A stretch of 64,000 nt of DNA from Escherichia coli O127:H6 str. E2348/69 (GTDB lineage: Bacteria > Pseudomonadota > Gammaproteobacteria > Enterobacterales > Enterobacteriaceae): the NCBI RefSeq assembly GCF_000026545.1, contig NC_011601.1. The stretch is one strand, 5' to 3'. Shown in pieces: positions 1-56,712 of the stretch (within the stretch, counting starts at the first letter, position 1; each line of letters opens with the position of its first letter). The notes under the pieces were generated by a model that saw only the letters and a program-made list of their open reading frames with translations, ran no database searches and had not been told where the DNA came from. The position numbers and the translations under genes were made by a program.

Positions 1-167
1 TGTACACCATTCAGGACGGTCGCGCCAAAGGCACGATGTTCAAACTGCACTTCACCGAATATGACAACCACTCCGACATCCCAAGCTGGGGCGGCGGTTA
101 CGGTAACATCTTCCAGGATGAGCGCGACGTGAAATTTATGGTAATCGCACCATTCACCATCTTCTGA
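1..167 (+). CDS. chiP: Chitoporin ChiP (OprD-family outer membrane porin), 3' end only; gene starts upstream of the window
   Basis: Frame open from the window edge to TGA at 165-167; translated tail ...[27 protein letters not shown] ends in aromatic residues typical of an OM beta-barrel; sits immediately upstream of chiQ. Confidence 0.6.
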
Positions 168-216
168 TGCCCGACGCGGCAGGTTTTGTGCCTGCCGCAC
201 GTTTGAGGAATTTGCT

Positions 217-543
217 ATGAAAAAACTGATTCTCATCGCCATGATGGCATCGGGGCTGGTAGCTTGTGCGCAATCAACCGCACCGCAGGAAGACAGTCGT
301 CTGAAAGAGGCTTACAGCGCCTGTATCAACACCGCGCAAGGTTCGCCGGAAAAAATTGAAGCCTGCCAGAGCGTGTTAAACGTGCTGAAGAAAGAGAAAC
401 AACATCAGCAGTTTGCCGAGCAGGAAAGTGTCCGCGTACTGGATTATCAGCAGTGTATTCAGGCAACGCAAACCGGAAATGATCAGGCGGTGAAAGCCGA
501 TTGTGATAAGGTCTGGCAGGAAATTCGCAGTAATAACAAATAA
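217..543 (+). CDS. chiQ: Lipoprotein ChiQ (YbfN)
   Basis: 108-aa ORF with lipoprotein signal peptide and lipobox (…LVAC AQ); synteny downstream of chiP. Confidence 0.75.
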   Translation: MKKLILIAMMASGLVACAQSTAPQEDSRLKEAYSACINTAQGSPEKIEACQSVLNVLKKEKQHQQFAEQESVRVLDYQQCIQATQTGNDQAVKADCDKVWQEIRSNNK

Positions 544-581
544 GTGAGAGCTGTAACTCTCGCTTTTCTTATTTCCCTTAT

Positions 582-612
582 ATAAAAAAGCCAACCCGTA
601 GGTTGGCTTTTC
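582..612. terminator. Hairpin plus T-run between convergent chiQ and fur; probable intrinsic terminator, strongest in the fur (minus) direction
   Basis: gccaacc-cgtagg-ttggc inverted repeat flanked by A/T runs on both sides. Confidence 0.5.
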
Positions 613-626
613 TCGTTCAGGCTGGC

Positions 627-1073
627 TTATTTGCCTTCGTGCGCGTGCTCATCTTCGCGGCAATCGCCTTCGGCACAGTGACCGTAAAGATAGAGACTGT
701 GGTTAGTCAGGCGAATGCCATGTTTTGCGGCAATTTCACGCTGACGCGCTTCGATGGAATCATCACTAAATTCGATAACCTTACCGCAGTCGAGGCAGAT
801 CAGGTGATCGTGGTGATGTTGCTGTGTCAGTTCAAATACGGATTTACCGCCTTCAAAATTGTGGCGGGTGACGATACCAGCGTCGTCAAACTGGTTCAGT
901 ACGCGATATACCGTAGCCAGACCAATTTCTTCACCCATATCGATCAGACGTTTGTATAAATCTTCCGCACTGACGTGATGGTTGTCCGGCTCCTGAAGAA
1001 CTTCCAGGATTTTCAAGCGAGGAAGCGTTACTTTCAGGCCAGCTTTCTTTAGGGCGGTATTGTTATCAGTCAT
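627..1073 (-). CDS. fur: Ferric uptake regulator Fur
   Basis: 148-aa ORF; translation matches Fur including the HHHDH and CxxC metal-site motifs. Confidence 0.95.
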   Translation of the reverse strand: MTDNNTALKKAGLKVTLPRLKILEVLQEPDNHHVSAEDLYKRLIDMGEEIGLATVYRVLNQFDDAGIVTRHNFEGGKSVFELTQQHHHDHLICLDCGKVIEFSDDSIEARQREIAAKHGIRLTNHSLYLYGHCAEGDCREDEHAHEGK

Positions 1074-1152
1074 GCGGAATCTGTCCTGTTACTAAGCGGT
1101 TCACTTCATTAGAAGAAGTGACAGAATTTGCTCTTGAGATAATGCGTATCAT
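1066..1152 (-). CDS. uof: uof, 28-codon leader ORF translationally coupled to fur
   Basis: In-frame ATG gives 28 codons (MIRIISRANSVTSSNEVNRLVTGQIPHD) whose stop overlaps the fur start; length and position agree with the described uof, but the exact peptide is not recalled independently. Confidence 0.45.
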   Translation of the reverse strand: MIRIISRANSVTSSNEVNRLVTGQIPHD

Positions 1153-1158
1153 TATAGA
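1137..1158. promoter_or_regulatory. Fur-box-like palindrome upstream of fur (autoregulation site)
   Basis: gagataatgcgtatcattata on the plus strand (reverse complement TATAATGATACGCATTATCTC) resembles the GATAATGATAATCATTATC consensus. Confidence 0.5.
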
Positions 1159-1361
1159 ATTGCCACGCCTAAATGAAAACCACAAGTCCCTGGCAAATAT
1201 TGTTAATAAAAACGTGGCACAGCTTACATTTACAACGGCAAGGCCACTTGAACACCGGGACATTGTACAGGTACAACAGCAAAAGTTACAAATTTGTAGC
1301 AATTATTTTGATTGGCATTATCTATTAATACGGCGTAGACATGAGTCTACGCCGCATCACA

Positions 1362-1892
1362 TCAGGCATTGAGAATTTCGTCGAGATGCAGCTCTTCAGA
1401 AATCTGTTTAACCCATTTTTCTACACGTTCAGCGGTCAGTTCCGGCTGACGGTCTTCGTCGATAGCCAGACCGACAAAGTGGTCATCATCAGCCAGACCT
1501 TTTGATGCTTCGAAGTGGTAGCCCGCGGTTGGCCAGTGACCAACGATAGTTGCGCCGCGCGGTTCAATGATGTCGCGGATGGTGCCCAATGCATCGCAGA
1601 AGTATTCTGCGTAATCTTCCTGGTCGCCACAACCAAACAGCGCAACCAGTTTGCCATTAAAATCAATCTCTTCGAGAGTCGGGAAGAAGTCATCCCAGTC
1701 ACACTGCGCTTCGCCGTAATACCAGGTTGGGATGCCCAGCAGCAGAATGTCATATGCTTCCAGATCTTCTTTGCTGCTTTTTGCAATGTCATGGACATCG
1801 GCAACGTCTTTACCAAGCTGTTTTTGAATCATTTTTGCGATATTTTCGGTATTACCGGTGTCGCTGCCGAAAAAGATGCCAGTGATAGCCAT
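1362..1892 (-). CDS. fldA: Flavodoxin 1
   Basis: 176 aa from the conserved start [16 protein letters not shown]… (flavodoxin FMN-binding signature); the supplied 215-aa ORF is an upstream in-frame extension and was trimmed. Confidence 0.93.
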
Positions 1893-2031
1893 GAGTGAAA
1901 TAACCTCTTGAAACTTATTGAAATGGGGGTGGAAAATTGCCCACGGATAAAGGCAATCATAGCAGAACAGGCAGTCTTGCGGAATCAGCAAACGAGCAGG
2001 ACTGCACACTGTGCTACATGAAAGTGGAAAT

Positions 2032-2325
2032 TTAAACGATGCCCTGACTACGCAGCGCCGCCAGTTGCTGCATTAACATCTCTTCGATCAGCTCGCTACG
2101 GCTCATATTGCGCGATTCCGCCAGCTCGTTCAGTGCCTCGACAGCTTCCGCGTTCAGCTTCAGTTCGACACGCTTAAGGCCACGTACTTTGTCGCGTTTT
2201 AGTTGGTTGCGTTTATTTATACGCAGCTGTTCATCGCGCGAAAGCGGATTAGTTTTCGGTCGTCCCGGTCGACGCTCGTGCGCGAACAGATCTAATGTCG
2301 TACGGTCCGTTTGTTCTTTGGCCAT
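2032..2325 (-). CDS. ybfE: Small uncharacterized protein YbfE (LexA-regulon member in K-12)
   Basis: 97 aa from [10 protein letters not shown]…; ORF trimmed to the conserved start; synteny between fldA and ybfF. Confidence 0.7.
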
Positions 2326-2464
2326 GATCTTGGTGACTTCGGGGGAAACAATCAGCCAGGCGCCTGCCCGGATGGATAGCGCGCCATAATACATCAGCGC
2401 GATGAGTCACGCCAACGTCCACGCGCGGAAAGCGACGCGGACGCTGGGTTTTTAATCAGTTGCG

Positions 2465-3229
2465 TTAATCATTGAGATAGCGACGGATAGCGCGTAATAC
2501 CGCATCCGGTTTTTCAGCATGGACCCAGTGACCCGCGCCAGCAATCACATGCGCCCGTGCCTGTGGAAATTGTGCCAGTAAATCATCGCGGTACTGCTCG
2601 CTAACATACGGAGAATTGCCGCCTGGGATAAACAGGGCAGGGTGATCCCATGCCGGGATTTTCTCCCAACCCACAATATGCGGATACTGATCCCACAATA
2701 CCGGCACGTTAAAGCGCCACTCCCCGTCAACAAAAGATTTCAGCAGAAACTGAATCACCCCTTCTTCATTAAGATGCTGGTGCATTATTGCTGCTGCTTG
2801 CTGGCGAGTTTGTGCGTCCGATTCACTGACTGCGTTGATGGCCGCGAAAATCTCATCATGCCGGCGAACGTGATAATCGACCGGCGCAATATCAATTGCC
2901 ACCAGCTTGTCAATCCGATCGGGGGCCAGTGCAGTAAGTGCCATTACCGCTTTACCGCCCATGGAGTGACCGATAAATGTTGCTTTGTCGATCTGCAGTG
3001 CATCCAGGGTATCAACAAGATCCTGGGCCATCGCCGGGTAATTCATTACCGGATCTCTCGGTGAAAGACCGTGGTTACGCATATCAACCTGGATGATATT
3101 GTGATCGTTTACCAGATCGCGAGCCAGTACGCCAAGGTTGTCGAGGCTACCAAACAGACCATGGACAAGAACGATGGGAGAATTATTGTGCTGGTTTTGT
3201 GCAGTTTGCGCGCGGATATTCAATTTCAT
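2465..3229 (-). CDS. ybfF: Alpha/beta-hydrolase esterase YbfF
   Basis: 254-aa ORF with GHSMGG nucleophile-elbow motif; synteny next to seqA. Confidence 0.9.
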   Translation of the reverse strand: MKLNIRAQTAQNQHNNSPIVLVHGLFGSLDNLGVLARDLVNDHNIIQVDMRNHGLSPRDPVMNYPAMAQDLVDTLDALQIDKATFIGHSMGGKAVMALTALAPDRIDKLVAIDIAPVDYHVRRHDEIFAAINAVSESDAQTRQQAAAIMHQHLNEEGVIQFLLKSFVDGEWRFNVPVLWDQYPHIVGWEKIPAWDHPALFIPGGNSPYVSEQYRDDLLAQFPQARAHVIAGAGHWVHAEKPDAVLRAIRRYLND

Positions 3230-3413
3230 GGCAAAGTTCTTTTTTTCGCGTTGTCGGGTTAGGGTATTATGTTGACCATTGTGCCACAGGGCTGCAACAA
3301 ATAAGGTTTATTCCGAGTTTTTCTGCAAGCCAGGCTTGACGCTATCCGCTGCCGGGATTTATTCATATACTCCTGGCGACTTGTATTCAGCTAAGACACT
3401 GCACTGGATTAAG

Positions 3414-53467: not shown

Positions 53468-54259
53468 ATGAGCAGTAACTTCAGACATCAACTATTGAGT
53501 CTGTCGTTACTGGTTGGTATAGCGGCCCCCTGGGCCGCTTTTGCTCAGGCACCAATCAGTAGTGTCGGCTCAGGCTCGGTCGAAGACCGCGTCACTCAAC
53601 TTGAGCGTATTTCTAATGCTCACAGCCAGCTTTTAACCCAACTCCAGCAACAACTCTCTGATAATCAATCCGATATTGATTCCCTGCGTGGTCAGATTCA
53701 GGAAAATCAGTATCAACTGAATCAGGTCGTGGAGCGGCAAAAGCAGATCCTGTTGCAGATCGACAGCCTCAGCAGCGGTGGTGCAGCGGCGCAATCAACC
53801 AGCGGCGATCAAAACGGTGTGGCGGCATCAACGACGCCGACAGCTGATGCTGGTACTGCGAATGCTGGCGCGCCGGTGAAAAGCGGTGATGCAAACACGG
53901 ATTACAATGCAGCTATTGCGCTGGTGCAGGATAAATCCCGCCAGGATGACGCAATGGTGGCATTTCAGAATTTCATCAAAAATTACCCTGATTCAACTTA
54001 CCTGCCAAACGCCAATTATTGGCTGGGTCAGTTAAACTACAACAAGGGTAAAAAAGATGATGCGGCGTATTATTTTGCTTCGGTAGTGAAAAACTATCCG
54101 AAGTCACCGAAGGCTGCAGATGCGATGTTTAAAGTCGGCGTCATCATGCAGGACAAAGGTGACACCGCAAAAGCGAAAGCCGTATACCAGCAGGTTATCA
54201 GTAAATACCCTGGTACTGATGGCGCTAAACAGGCGCAAAAACGTCTGAACGCTATGTAA
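53468..54259 (+). CDS. cpoB: Cell division coordinator CpoB (YbgF), TPR protein
   Basis: 263-aa ORF with signal peptide, coiled-coil and C-terminal TPR repeats. Confidence 0.93.
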   Translation: MSSNFRHQLLSLSLLVGIAAPWAAFAQAPISSVGSGSVEDRVTQLERISNAHSQLLTQLQQQLSDNQSDIDSLRGQIQENQYQLNQVVERQKQILLQIDSLSSGGAAAQSTSGDQNGVAASTTPTADAGTANAGAPVKSGDANTDYNAAIALVQDKSRQDDAMVAFQNFIKNYPDSTYLPNANYWLGQLNYNKGKKDDAAYYFASVVKNYPKSPKAADAMFKVGVIMQDKGDTAKAKAVYQQVISKYPGTDGAKQAQKRLNAM

Positions 54260-54422
54260 TGCATAACACACGACCAGAAGTCGCATTATTTCTGGTCGTG
54301 TCGTGCGAATCATAAGCAGTTGAGTGATCTACATCGAAATTTTTGTTGCGCTCAAGTCTGAAATCAGTAATATATGCCGCCGTTGCCACGGGATATCAAA
54401 CAAACCGAAGCAACGAAAAAGT

Positions 54423-54498
54423 GGGTCGTTAGCTCAGTTGGTAGAGCAGTTGACTTTTAATCAATTGGTCGCAGGTTCGAATCCTGCACGACCCACCA
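54423..54498 (+). tRNA. lysT: tRNA-Lys (anticodon UUU)
   Basis: 76-nt GGGTCGTTAGCTCAGTTGGTAGAGCAGTTGACTTTTAATCAATTGGTCGCAGGTTCGAATCCTGCACGACCCACCA with encoded CCA. Confidence 0.95.
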
Positions 54499-54533
54499 CT
54501 AACATAGTTAGTTGTAGTATCCAGCGTAGTATC

Positions 54534-54609
54534 GGGTGATTAGCTCAGCTGGGAGAGCACCTCCCTTACAAGGAGGGGGTCGGCGGTTCGATCCCGTCAT
54601 CACCCACCA
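54534..54609 (+). tRNA. valT: tRNA-Val (anticodon UAC)
   Basis: 76-nt GGGTGATTAGCTCAGCTGGGAGAGCACCTCCCTTACAAGGAGGGGGTCGGCGGTTCGATCCCGTCATCACCCACCA. Confidence 0.95.
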
Positions 54610-54611
54610 CC

Positions 54612-54687
54612 GGGTCGTTAGCTCAGTTGGTAGAGCAGTTGACTTTTAATCAATTGGTCGCAGGTTCGAATCCTGCACGACCCACCA
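54612..54687 (+). tRNA. lysW: tRNA-Lys (UUU)
   Basis: Identical 76-nt tRNA-Lys sequence. Confidence 0.95.
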
Positions 54688-54738
54688 CTAATGACGGTGG
54701 GTTCGGTGGAAGTAGTTTGTAGTATCCAGCGCAGTATC

Positions 54739-54814
54739 GGGTGATTAGCTCAGCTGGGAGAGCACCTCCCTTACAAGGAGGGGGTCGGCGGTTCGATCCC
54801 GTCATCACCCACCA
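54739..54814 (+). tRNA. valZ: tRNA-Val (UAC)
   Basis: Identical 76-nt tRNA-Val sequence. Confidence 0.95.
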
Positions 54815-54817
54815 CTC

Positions 54818-54893
54818 GGGTCGTTAGCTCAGTTGGTAGAGCAGTTGACTTTTAATCAATTGGTCGCAGGTTCGAATCCTGCACGACCCACCA
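54818..54893 (+). tRNA. lysY: tRNA-Lys (UUU)
   Basis: Identical 76-nt tRNA-Lys sequence. Confidence 0.95.
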
Positions 54894-54941
54894 ATTTTAA
54901 ACATTGGTTCCGAGTAGAAATCTTTCAGGTAACACCCGTAT

Positions 54942-55017
54942 GGGTCGTTAGCTCAGTTGGTAGAGCAGTTGACTTTTAATCAATTGGTCGCAGGTTCGAA
55001 TCCTGCACGACCCACCA
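54942..55017 (+). tRNA. lysZ: tRNA-Lys (UUU)
   Basis: Identical 76-nt tRNA-Lys sequence. Confidence 0.95.
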
Positions 55018-55050
55018 TCCTGAATGATTAAAGCAGCATAATCCCGCAAG

Positions 55051-55126
55051 GGGTCGTTAGCTCAGTTGGTAGAGCAGTTGACTTTTAATCAATTGGTCGC
55101 AGGTTCGAATCCTGCACGACCCACCA
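55051..55126 (+). tRNA. lysQ: tRNA-Lys (UUU)
   Basis: Identical 76-nt tRNA-Lys sequence; first copy of the 109-bp tandem unit. Confidence 0.95.
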
Positions 55127-55159
55127 TCCTGAATGATTAAAGCAGCATAATCCCGCAAG

Positions 55160-55235
55160 GGGTCGTTAGCTCAGTTGGTAGAGCAGTTGACTTTTAATCA
55201 ATTGGTCGCAGGTTCGAATCCTGCACGACCCACCA
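55160..55235 (+). tRNA. tRNA-Lys (UUU), extra eighth gene of the array (second copy of the 109-bp tandem unit)
   Basis: Identical 76-nt tRNA-Lys sequence preceded by the same 33-nt spacer as the previous gene. Confidence 0.93.
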
Positions 55236-55239
55236 ATGT

Positions 55240-55268
55240 AAAAAAGCGCCCTAAAGGCACTTTTTTGC
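55240..55268 (+). terminator. Intrinsic terminator of the lys/val tRNA operon
   Basis: aaaaaagcgccctaaaggcac hairpin followed by TTTTTT; a near-identical second copy lies at 55395-55423. Confidence 0.7.
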
Positions 55269-55394
55269 TATCTGCGATACTCAAAGATTCGAACCTGCAG
55301 CAGGTTTGAGTTGAGCGCAGCGAAACAACGGAGCCGCTCGCGGCGACGGCCCGAAGGGCAAGCGAAGCGAGTCATCCTGCACGACCCACCAATG

Positions 55395-55423
55395 CAAAAA
55401 AGCGCCCTAAAGGCGCTTTTTTG
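55395..55423 (+). terminator. Second copy of the tRNA-operon terminator, preceded by a tRNA-Lys 3'-end fragment (55372-55391)
   Basis: aaaaaagcgccctaaaggcgc hairpin followed by TTTTTT; preceded by tcatcctgcacgacccacca. Confidence 0.6.
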
Positions 55424-55577
55424 CTATTCAGGCATCTCTCAATTTCAATTCTTGACCCTGATGACATACTCCGCGTTTGCTGCGTAAACAACTCTACGTC
55501 GGAGGAATAAGACGCAAAGTGTGGCATTCGGCATCTCATACGTAATTCGAGTGACTTTTCCCCACCATTCGACTATC

Positions 55578-55597
55578 TTGTTTAGTATACAAAACAA
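55578..55597. promoter_or_regulatory. Possible NadR operator (NAD box) in the nadA promoter
   Basis: ttgtttagtatacaaaacaa is a near-palindrome containing a TGTTTA half-site, about 70 bp upstream of nadA. Confidence 0.3.
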
Positions 55598-55668
55598 ATT
55601 ACGCCGATAATAGCGAATATCACGCTTAAGTCGGTTTTAACGTTAAGCCTGTAGAACGAGATGGTAAG

Positions 55669-56712
55669 ATGAGCGTGATGTTTGATCCAGACACGGCGAT
55701 TTATCCTTTCCCCCCGAAGCCGACGCCGTTAAGCATTGATGAAAAAGCGTATTACCGCGAGAAGATAAAACGTCTACTAAAAGAACGTAATGCGGTGATG
55801 GTTGCCCACTACTATACCGATCCCGAAATTCAACAACTGGCAGAAGAAACCGGTGGCTGTATTTCTGATTCTCTGGAAATGGCGCGCTTCGGTGCAAAGC
55901 ATCCCGCTTCTACGTTGTTAGTCGCTGGGGTGAGATTTATGGGAGAAACCGCCAAAATTCTCAGTCCGGAAAAAACAATTCTGATGCCGACACTTCAGGC
56001 TGAATGTTCACTGGATCTCGGCTGCCCTGTTGAAGAATTTAACGCATTTTGCGATGCCCATCCCGATCGTACTGTCGTCGTCTACGCCAACACTTCTGCT
56101 GCGGTAAAAGCGCGTGCAGATTGGGTGGTAACTTCAAGCATTGCCGTCGAACTTATTGATCATCTGGATAGTTTGGGTGAAAAAATCATCTGGGCACCTG
56201 ACACACATCTGGGGCGTTACGTGCAAAAACAGACGGGCGCAGACATTTTATGCTGGCAGGGTGCCTGCATTGTGCATGATGAGTTTAAGACTCAGGCGTT
56301 AACCCGCTTGCAAGAAGAATACCCGGATGCTGCCATACTGGTGCATCCAGAATCACCGCAAGCTATTGTAGAGATGGCGGATGCGGTCGGTTCCACCAGT
56401 CAACTGATAGCTGCTGCGAAAACATTGCAACATCAGCGGCTTATCGTGGCAACCGATCGGGGCATTTTCTACAAAATGCAGCAGGCGGTGCCAGATAAAG
56501 AGTTACTGGAAGCACCAACCGCGGGGGAGGGCGCAACCTGTCGCAGCTGCGCGCATTGCCCGTGGATGGCCATGAATGGCCTTCAGGCCATCGCAGAGGC
56601 ATTAGAACAGGAAGGAAGCAATCACGAGGTTTATGTTGATGAAAGGCTGCGAGAGAGGGCGCTGGTGCCGCTCAATCGTATGCTGGATTTTGCGGCTACA
56701 CTACGTGGATAA
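55669..56712 (+). CDS. nadA: Quinolinate synthase A
   Basis: 347-aa [32 protein letters not shown]…. Confidence 0.96.

Follow-up and report, generated by a model that had tools for sequence, protein, structure and literature searches.

The closest described relative of the locus treated here is the lysT operon of Escherichia coli K-12, whose tRNA cluster is expressed as a single transcript of more than 1,100 nt (PMC4176162). Its processing begins with removal of the terminator by RNase P, which then cleaves at the 5' end of each tRNA, working from 3' to 5', and the 3' trailers are trimmed by exonucleases (PMC4176162). More generally, comparative and experimental studies show that tRNA gene sets evolve by duplication and loss, and in Pseudomonas fluorescens SBW25 large spontaneous tandem duplications raise tRNA gene copy number (PMC7661048, PMC10954465).

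The window analysed, a stretch of 64,000 nucleotides of E. coli O127:H6 str. E2348/69 (NC_011601.1), contains the corresponding operon at the same locus as in K-12 MG1655, between cpoB and nadA, with the same gene order, identical tRNA-Lys and tRNA-Val sequences and a terminator of the same class. It differs in holding one additional tRNA-Lys gene (eight tRNA genes against seven, six for Lys against five), as a preliminary description of this DNA had stated. It also differs in the spacing of the Lys genes, which is 109-124 bp in E2348/69, where the spacers have no RtT inserts, and 208-222 bp in K-12. The reading favoured here, with a probability of roughly 0.9, is that the lysT operon has undergone a genuine tandem duplication of 109 bp, caused by misalignment of identical tRNA-Lys genes through unequal exchange or slippage.

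The tRNA array and its repeat tract

Eight tRNA genes were identified by ARAGORN on the + strand at 54423-55235 of the window, with the anticodons ttt (Lys) and tac (Val). All eight score far above the gathering score of the Rfam tRNA model (RF00005), which is 29; the Lys genes reach 79.2 bits. The order on this one strand, between cpoB and nadA, is Lys-Val-Lys-Val-Lys-Lys-Lys-Lys, identical to the order read earlier from the letters, and the successive spacers measure 35, 2, 51, 3, 48, 33 and 33 nt. The operon opens with a tRNA-Lys(UUU) gene identical to K-12 lysT (54423-54498), followed by the valT equivalent, a tRNA-Val(UAC) gene (54534-54609). The equivalents of lysW (tRNA-Lys(UUU), 54612-54687), valZ (tRNA-Val(UAC), 54739-54814) and lysY (tRNA-Lys(UUU), 54818-54893) were assigned by ARAGORN, Rfam and string comparison, and a 48-nt spacer separates the last of these from the lysZ equivalent (tRNA-Lys(UUU), 54942-55017). 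Then follow a first copy of the 33-nt spacer, TCCTGAATGATTAAAGCAGCATAATCCCGCAAG, at 55018-55050, the additional tRNA-Lys(UUU) gene at 55051-55126, which is missing in five-Lys relatives such as SC477, a second and identical copy of the spacer at 55127-55159, and the lysQ equivalent (tRNA-Lys(UUU), 55160-55235), the last gene before the terminator. String comparison shows a single sequence for the six Lys genes of the array, which encode the 3' CCA and match K-12 lysT exactly; the two Val genes likewise have the sequence of K-12 valT. As a separate observation, the valT equivalent of the O103 strain RM8385 (1831-1906 of its locus) and of strain 97-3250 carries a C27T substitution in the otherwise invariant tRNA-Val(UAC), and scores 63.4 bits in Rfam against 65.9 for the other copies.

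The repeat lies in the distal half of the array on the + strand. Tandem Repeats Finder reports a tract at 54942-55235 with a period of 109, 2.7 copies, 100% matches, 0% indels and a score of 588, which consists of tRNA-Lys, 33-nt spacer, tRNA-Lys, 33-nt spacer and tRNA-Lys. The 109-bp unit thus comprises the 76-nt tRNA-Lys(UUU) gene and the 33-nt spacer. By direct string comparison 55018-55126 equals 55127-55235 letter for letter, in agreement with the earlier claim that a unit of spacer plus tRNA-Lys occurs twice at 55018-55235 with no mismatches. That interval correctly delimits two units in the spacer-plus-tRNA phase; the full tract starts one tRNA earlier, at 54942, and identity at period 109 covers exactly 54942-55235 (294 nt), with limits that coincide with tRNA gene borders. 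The three tRNA copies of the tract are identical, and the 'new' gene is therefore indistinguishable among them. The copies are joined head to tail without intervening or foreign sequence, as is seen both from the Tandem Repeats Finder alignment and from exact string identity, and no transposase, target-site duplication or foreign DNA was found at the duplication. A perfect tandem repeat of 218 nt cannot be a chance match.

The copy number was compared between deposited assemblies. Over 2,601 nt the region shows 100% identity with NZ_CP059840.2, NZ_LT827011.1 and NZ_LT903847.1, all complete genomes of E2348/69, and the annotation of each lists six tRNA-Lys and two tRNA-Val genes in the interval from cpoB to nadA. 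The three records are of unequal total length, and the description of LT827011 names it as a separate stock ('variety 2'), which indicates that they are not copies of one assembly; the copy number is constant across them. An assembly artefact is therefore unlikely, given this agreement between deposited assemblies. The specific possibility that an over-expanded repeat conceals a strain with the usual five Lys genes in its array draws on the difficulty that identical 109-bp repeats pose for short reads, in a tract of 294 nt. It is scarcely credible, since three separate complete assemblies of unequal total length agree at 100%, 33 further complete genomes, produced in unrelated projects, contain the same junction, and a single Sanger or long read could span the whole tract. 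The concern in the preliminary description that copies may have been collapsed or expanded is thus answered as far as assemblies allow, with six Lys genes in three out of three.

Origin of the unit and its recurrence in E. coli

The length of the duplicated unit equals the spacing of the pre-existing tRNA-Lys repeats, which is 109 bp, as in the five-Lys relative SC477, where two Lys genes separated by the 33-nt spacer have the same 109-bp period, and the junction lies inside the homology. The bases flanking lysZ and lysQ differ, both the preceding base and the following bases, so that the shared homology is exactly the 76-bp gene. As the homology stops at the tRNA gene borders, the exchange is placed inside a tRNA gene, which accounts for a perfect repeat with no scar. 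In the proposed course of events the lysZ and lysQ equivalents, identical 76-bp genes 109 bp apart start to start, would misalign, either between sister chromosomes in an unequal exchange or through strand slippage in replication. Whether by exchange or by slippage of the nascent strand, an event within the gene would then yield a scarless gain or loss of 109 bp, and the gain would convert two tRNA-Lys genes into three. RecA-dependent unequal sister-chromosome exchange and RecA-independent slippage both act on repeats of such size and spacing in E. coli and, as both give the same product, the sequence cannot separate them. The earlier proposal of a homology-driven tandem duplication by unequal recombination is upheld by the match of unit length and repeat spacing, with the addition that slippage would leave an identical product. 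Reciprocal deletion products are also present in the population, as a loss junction and as the four-Lys arrays of VTB96937v and O157:H7 H2495.

The frequency of the duplication was determined in 5,426 complete E. coli genomes, using as query the junction of 33-nt spacer, tRNA and 33-nt spacer with 10-nt flanks (162 nt) and an E-value limit chosen so that only a single HSP of more than ~140 nt passes. A set of 1,235 'full-coverage' genomes obtained without the E-value limit was rejected as an artefact, in which non-colinear pieces had been joined and the copies of the tRNA 3' end that terminate RtT repeats had been matched. The junction occurs in 36 of the 5,426 genomes (0.7%), a count of genomes and not of independent events, as many of them are clonal, and the 162 nt are identical in all 36 carriers, among which are commensal, avian, porcine and river isolates. 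No triplication of the 109-bp unit was detected in the 5,426 genomes. A tRNA-Lys gene followed directly by the 33-nt spacer is present in 3,199 genomes, and the spacer is close to invariant, with a match of at least 99% in 3,198 of these. The analogous junction in RtT-bearing arrays of the K-12 type occurs in seven genomes, including MC4100, BW2952 and K1508. Duplication from lysY to lysQ was found once in short-spacer arrays (strain E371) and in none of the RtT-bearing arrays of the genome survey. The reciprocal loss junction, composed of the lysZ-type upstream spacer, the tRNA and the terminator, is present in 399 of the 5,426 genomes, mostly O157:H7; loss is much commoner than gain, largely because the O157:H7 clone is heavily sampled.

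Several array variants were observed alongside these counts. In O157:H7 H2495 (1525-2217 of its locus) the four-Lys array is missing the last unit, while that of VTB96937v (1525-2104 of its locus) is without a 124-bp unit. The avian strain E371 (2021-2852 of its locus) has, in a notation where K is Lys, V is Val and the numbers are spacer lengths in nt, the array K-135-V-3-K-48-K-33-K-48-K-33-K, with six Lys genes and one Val gene; one Val-Lys unit has been lost and a 233-bp unit of two genes duplicated. Two junctions of tRNA-Lys with the 33-nt spacer are found in 46 genomes: the 36 with the tandem form, E371, and about nine others, including two places on plasmids, which are unexplained.

Across the collection, 31,826 exact copies of the tRNA-Lys gene were counted in 5,425 genomes (mean 5.87, median 6, range 1-11), the upper extreme being a genome with 11 copies. 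In a spread sample of 60 genomes, 48 have six exact copies, 12 have five and none has seven. Besides the lysT array, E2348/69 contains an identical Lys gene in its intact valU-valX-valY-lysV operon, and its total of seven identical tRNA-Lys(UUU) genes is one above the species norm.

In order to compare the backgrounds on which the duplication occurs, arrays were written out for nine fetched carriers and several non-carriers. The array of E2348/69 reads K-35-V-2-K-51-V-3-K-48-K-33-K-33-K, with 433 nt to nadA. Dog168 and BEN2908 have the same array at 277 nt from nadA, and O55:H7 DEC5D has K-35-V-2-K-51-V-3-K-146-K-33-K-33-K, also at 277 nt. Strain 2012C-4221 carries K-135-V-2-K-51-V-3-K-146-K-33-K-33-K (433 nt to nadA), and O112ab:H8 carries K-135-V-2-K-149-V-3-K-146-K-33-K-33-K (248 nt), an array shared by O103 RM8385 and 97-3250 at 404 nt. 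The 33-K-33 duplication is thus found on at least six array or flank backgrounds among the nine carriers examined. Over cpoB and nadA together (1,836 nt), E2348/69 differs by 11-12 SNPs from the other B2-type carriers and by 26-36 from the rest. Some pairs of strains with unequal copy number are far closer: no SNPs separate Dog168 (six Lys) from VTB96937v (four Lys, 124-bp loss), two separate DEC5D (six Lys) from O157:H7 H2495 (four Lys), and none separates MG1655 (five Lys) from MC4100 (six Lys, 208-bp unit). The 208-bp tandem duplication of MC4100 (2336-2827 of its locus) is absent from MG1655, and the lack of any SNP between the two in cpoB and nadA indicates that this event arose in the laboratory pedigree.

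An alternative explanation of the recurrent junction is that the six-Lys array arose once, long ago, as a rare polymorphism that has since been moved by homologous recombination and kept perfect by concerted evolution. Short chromosomal segments are exchanged in E. coli, all 36 carriers have an identical 162-nt junction, and perfect identity dates nothing in a unit made of an invariant tRNA and a spacer that hardly varies. Against this, the carrier arrays differ immediately upstream of the duplication (48 or 146 nt) and in their distance to nadA (248, 277, 404 or 433 nt), and carriers have relatives with four or five Lys genes at 0-2 flank SNPs. An analogous duplication has, moreover, arisen within the laboratory K-12 pedigree, as the comparison of MC4100 with MG1655 shows, and a transfer of a few hundred base pairs on each occasion is less parsimonious than a misalignment which the structure of the array itself invites. 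A single ancient origin is therefore considered very improbable, and repeated duplication by misalignment is preferred.

The age of the event has to be judged on similar grounds. In the preliminary description the perfection of the repeat was taken to imply a recent duplication; this step carries little weight by itself, since 76 of the 109 nt belong to an invariant tRNA gene and the remaining 33-nt spacer is nearly invariant, which makes perfect identity a weak sign of recency. The claim of recency itself stands, carried by the population data (36 of 5,426 genomes, at least six backgrounds, near-identical relatives with four or five Lys genes) and not by the perfection of the repeat. The comparison of tRNA-Lys copy number among related genomes, which had been suggested at the outset, revealed arrays of four, five and six Lys genes. 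Near-identical flanks combined with unequal copy numbers imply that gains and losses of single units have been repeated and recent, including in a laboratory pedigree. Gains and reciprocal losses thus recur often in E. coli. For E2348/69 itself, no close relative was found which combines the same downstream RtT/terminator architecture with five Lys genes; the nearest flanks are those of strain Z135-1 (99.6% identity, five Lys), which also is without the 156-bp RtT/terminator unit, and the event is for this reason not datable in the E2348/69 lineage.

Flanking elements, expression and dosage

The long spacers of the K-12 array are RtT-family repeats (Rfam RF00391, 51-60 bits), present as inserts of 98-100 nt, each ending in GTCATCCTGCACGACCCACCA, an 18-nt repeat of the tRNA-Lys 3' end (2131-3077 of the K-12 locus). 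They occupy each of the four spacers that follow a Lys gene, while E2348/69 has none of the four (window 54499-55050), its spacers being those of K-12 minus the RtT inserts. Among strains, the presence of the insert varies spacer by spacer, and the array is accordingly a mosaic of indels. Gains were found in 36 of 3,199 short-spacer genomes against 7 among at most ~2,200 long-spacer genomes, a comparison which is only suggestive, as the counts are not phylogenetically independent. The closer proximity of identical genes in arrays devoid of RtT may explain the larger number of gains there.

A Rho-independent terminator follows the last Lys gene, where folding predicts two hairpins on the + strand. 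The proximal one (55238-55268; predicted fold -13.7 kcal/mol, z -4.55) belongs to the same sequence class as the lysQ and lysV terminators of K-12 (PMC4176162). It is followed by an RtT-like repeat (55266-55391, + strand) which scores 43.8 bits with RF00391, just under the gathering score of 45, has a copy of the tRNA-Lys 3' end at its own end, and has homologues annotated as 'RtT sRNA' in other strains. The distal hairpin (55394-55424) has a perfect stem with a predicted fold of -21.1 kcal/mol. It lies within the second of two 54-nt direct repeats, 55218-55271 and 55374-55427, which are 156 bp apart. Many B2-type genomes are missing this 156-bp RtT/terminator unit and have 277 instead of 433 nt to nadA, as expected for loss by recombination between the 54-nt repeats. 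At position 55259 the proximal terminator departs from the distal copy, from K-12 and from the lysV terminator by having A in place of G, creating a C.A mismatch in the stem (predicted -13.7 against -21.1 kcal/mol). Judging from these predicted folds, the proximal terminator may be weakened, so that transcription could continue into the RtT-like element and on to the second terminator.

Upstream of the array, a consensus scan of 54200-55700 returned no sigma-70 site; the same simple scan also missed both terminators. By eye, TTGCGC, a 16-nt interval, TAATAT and a G+C-rich discriminator can be read as a candidate promoter at about 54337-54372, in a stretch conserved with K-12. Further upstream, at the pal-cpoB intergenic region, lies the CpoB/ybgF thermometer element (RF02782, 142 bits; 990-1128 of the K-12 locus, 555-693 of the RM8385 locus), a known element unrelated to the duplication, with its homologous stretch upstream of the array in the window.

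The additional gene shares its 33-nt leader with lysQ and its 33-nt trailer with lysZ, and is situated within the single polycistron. With parental leader and trailer inside the polycistron, it would be expected to be transcribed and matured like the other copies, and identical tRNA-Lys genes would rise from five to six in the operon and from six to seven in the genome. In E. coli, the mature tRNA pool responds more strongly to changes in tRNA gene copy number than to regulation, and work on tRNA gene deletions indicates that extra copies help in rich media and are costly in poor media (PMC9981150). By analogy, a modest rise in tRNA-Lys on going from six to seven genes is plausible.

Whether such a rise has been favoured by selection is a further matter. 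More tRNA-Lys(UUU) might benefit the pathogen, and the possible advantages include faster growth in the rich gut and better translation of AAA/AAG-rich, AT-rich horizontally acquired genes. This would be consistent with tRNA-Lys(UUU) being the only lysine isoacceptor gene family seen here, with the dependence of tRNA pool composition on gene copy number in E. coli (PMC9981150), and with the attaching-effacing character of several carriers (E2348/69, O55:H7 DEC5D, O103 and 97-3250). The O157:H7 clone, however, is attaching-effacing too and has one gene fewer, commensal, avian, porcine and river isolates are found among the carriers as well, and carriers make up just 0.7% of the genomes, the allele not being fixed in any lineage beyond small clusters. 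Retention by selection is thus unlikely. The success of O157:H7 with one gene fewer, together with the many hosts of the carriers, suggests that a change of one copy in either direction is close to neutral, and the extra-copy allele most likely represents copy-number variation with little or no effect on fitness. A bolder idea is that the lysT array functions as a fast and reversible copy-number dial for the sole lysine tRNA, in which lineages would have kept a gain (E2348/69) or a loss (O157:H7) to suit growth in their niche or the translation of AAA-rich acquired genes, and short-spacer arrays may switch more often. Arrays with four, five and six Lys genes and genome-wide totals of 1 to 11 copies were seen; the idea is speculative and improbable.

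Relation to known systems

The duplication is real but represents an ordinary, recurrent kind of copy-number change, already known as a type of event, and the RefSeq annotation already contains the six Lys genes. It carries little weight for biology at large; its value is that of a clean natural case, in a widely used reference pathogen, of a tRNA gene copy number changed by misalignment in a tandem array. In practical terms, the K-12 count is unsafe for comparing E. coli tRNA gene sets or codon-adaptation indices, as arrays with four, five and six Lys genes occur, and the array is a spot where short-read assemblies and variant callers can err. Isogenic natural alleles with four, five and six copies may also serve as material for measuring what a single tRNA gene copy costs and what it brings.

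Within E. coli the nearest parallel is found in MC4100, BW2952 and K1508, where a head-to-tail duplication of the same lysZ/lysQ pair has produced an array of six Lys and two Val genes. The unit there is 208 bp, the spacer carrying an RtT insert, and the array reads K-132-K-132-K, a junction confined to only seven genomes. The loss alleles of O157:H7 and others, such as VTB96937v, derive from the same kind of misalignment between the identical tRNA-Lys genes of this array; in these one unit is gone (109 or 124 bp, or the RtT-bearing equivalents) and four Lys genes are left. A classical precedent is that of the tandem tRNA-Tyr genes tyrT-tyrV, whose copies were reportedly found by Russell et al. 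(1970, J Mol Biol) to be gained and lost by unequal recombination. As in the lysT array, identical tandem tRNA genes are involved, with RtT-type repeats after them; the tRNA and the locus are different, and the demonstration was a genetic one on transducing phages rather than a natural polymorphism. In SBW25, finally, the tRNA gene set was likewise changed by tandem duplication and the dosage altered (PMC7661048, PMC10954465), but the events there were large, and laboratory selection favoured them because they made up for the deletion of a tRNA gene, whereas that in E2348/69, with no known selective trigger, spans 109 bp within the array.
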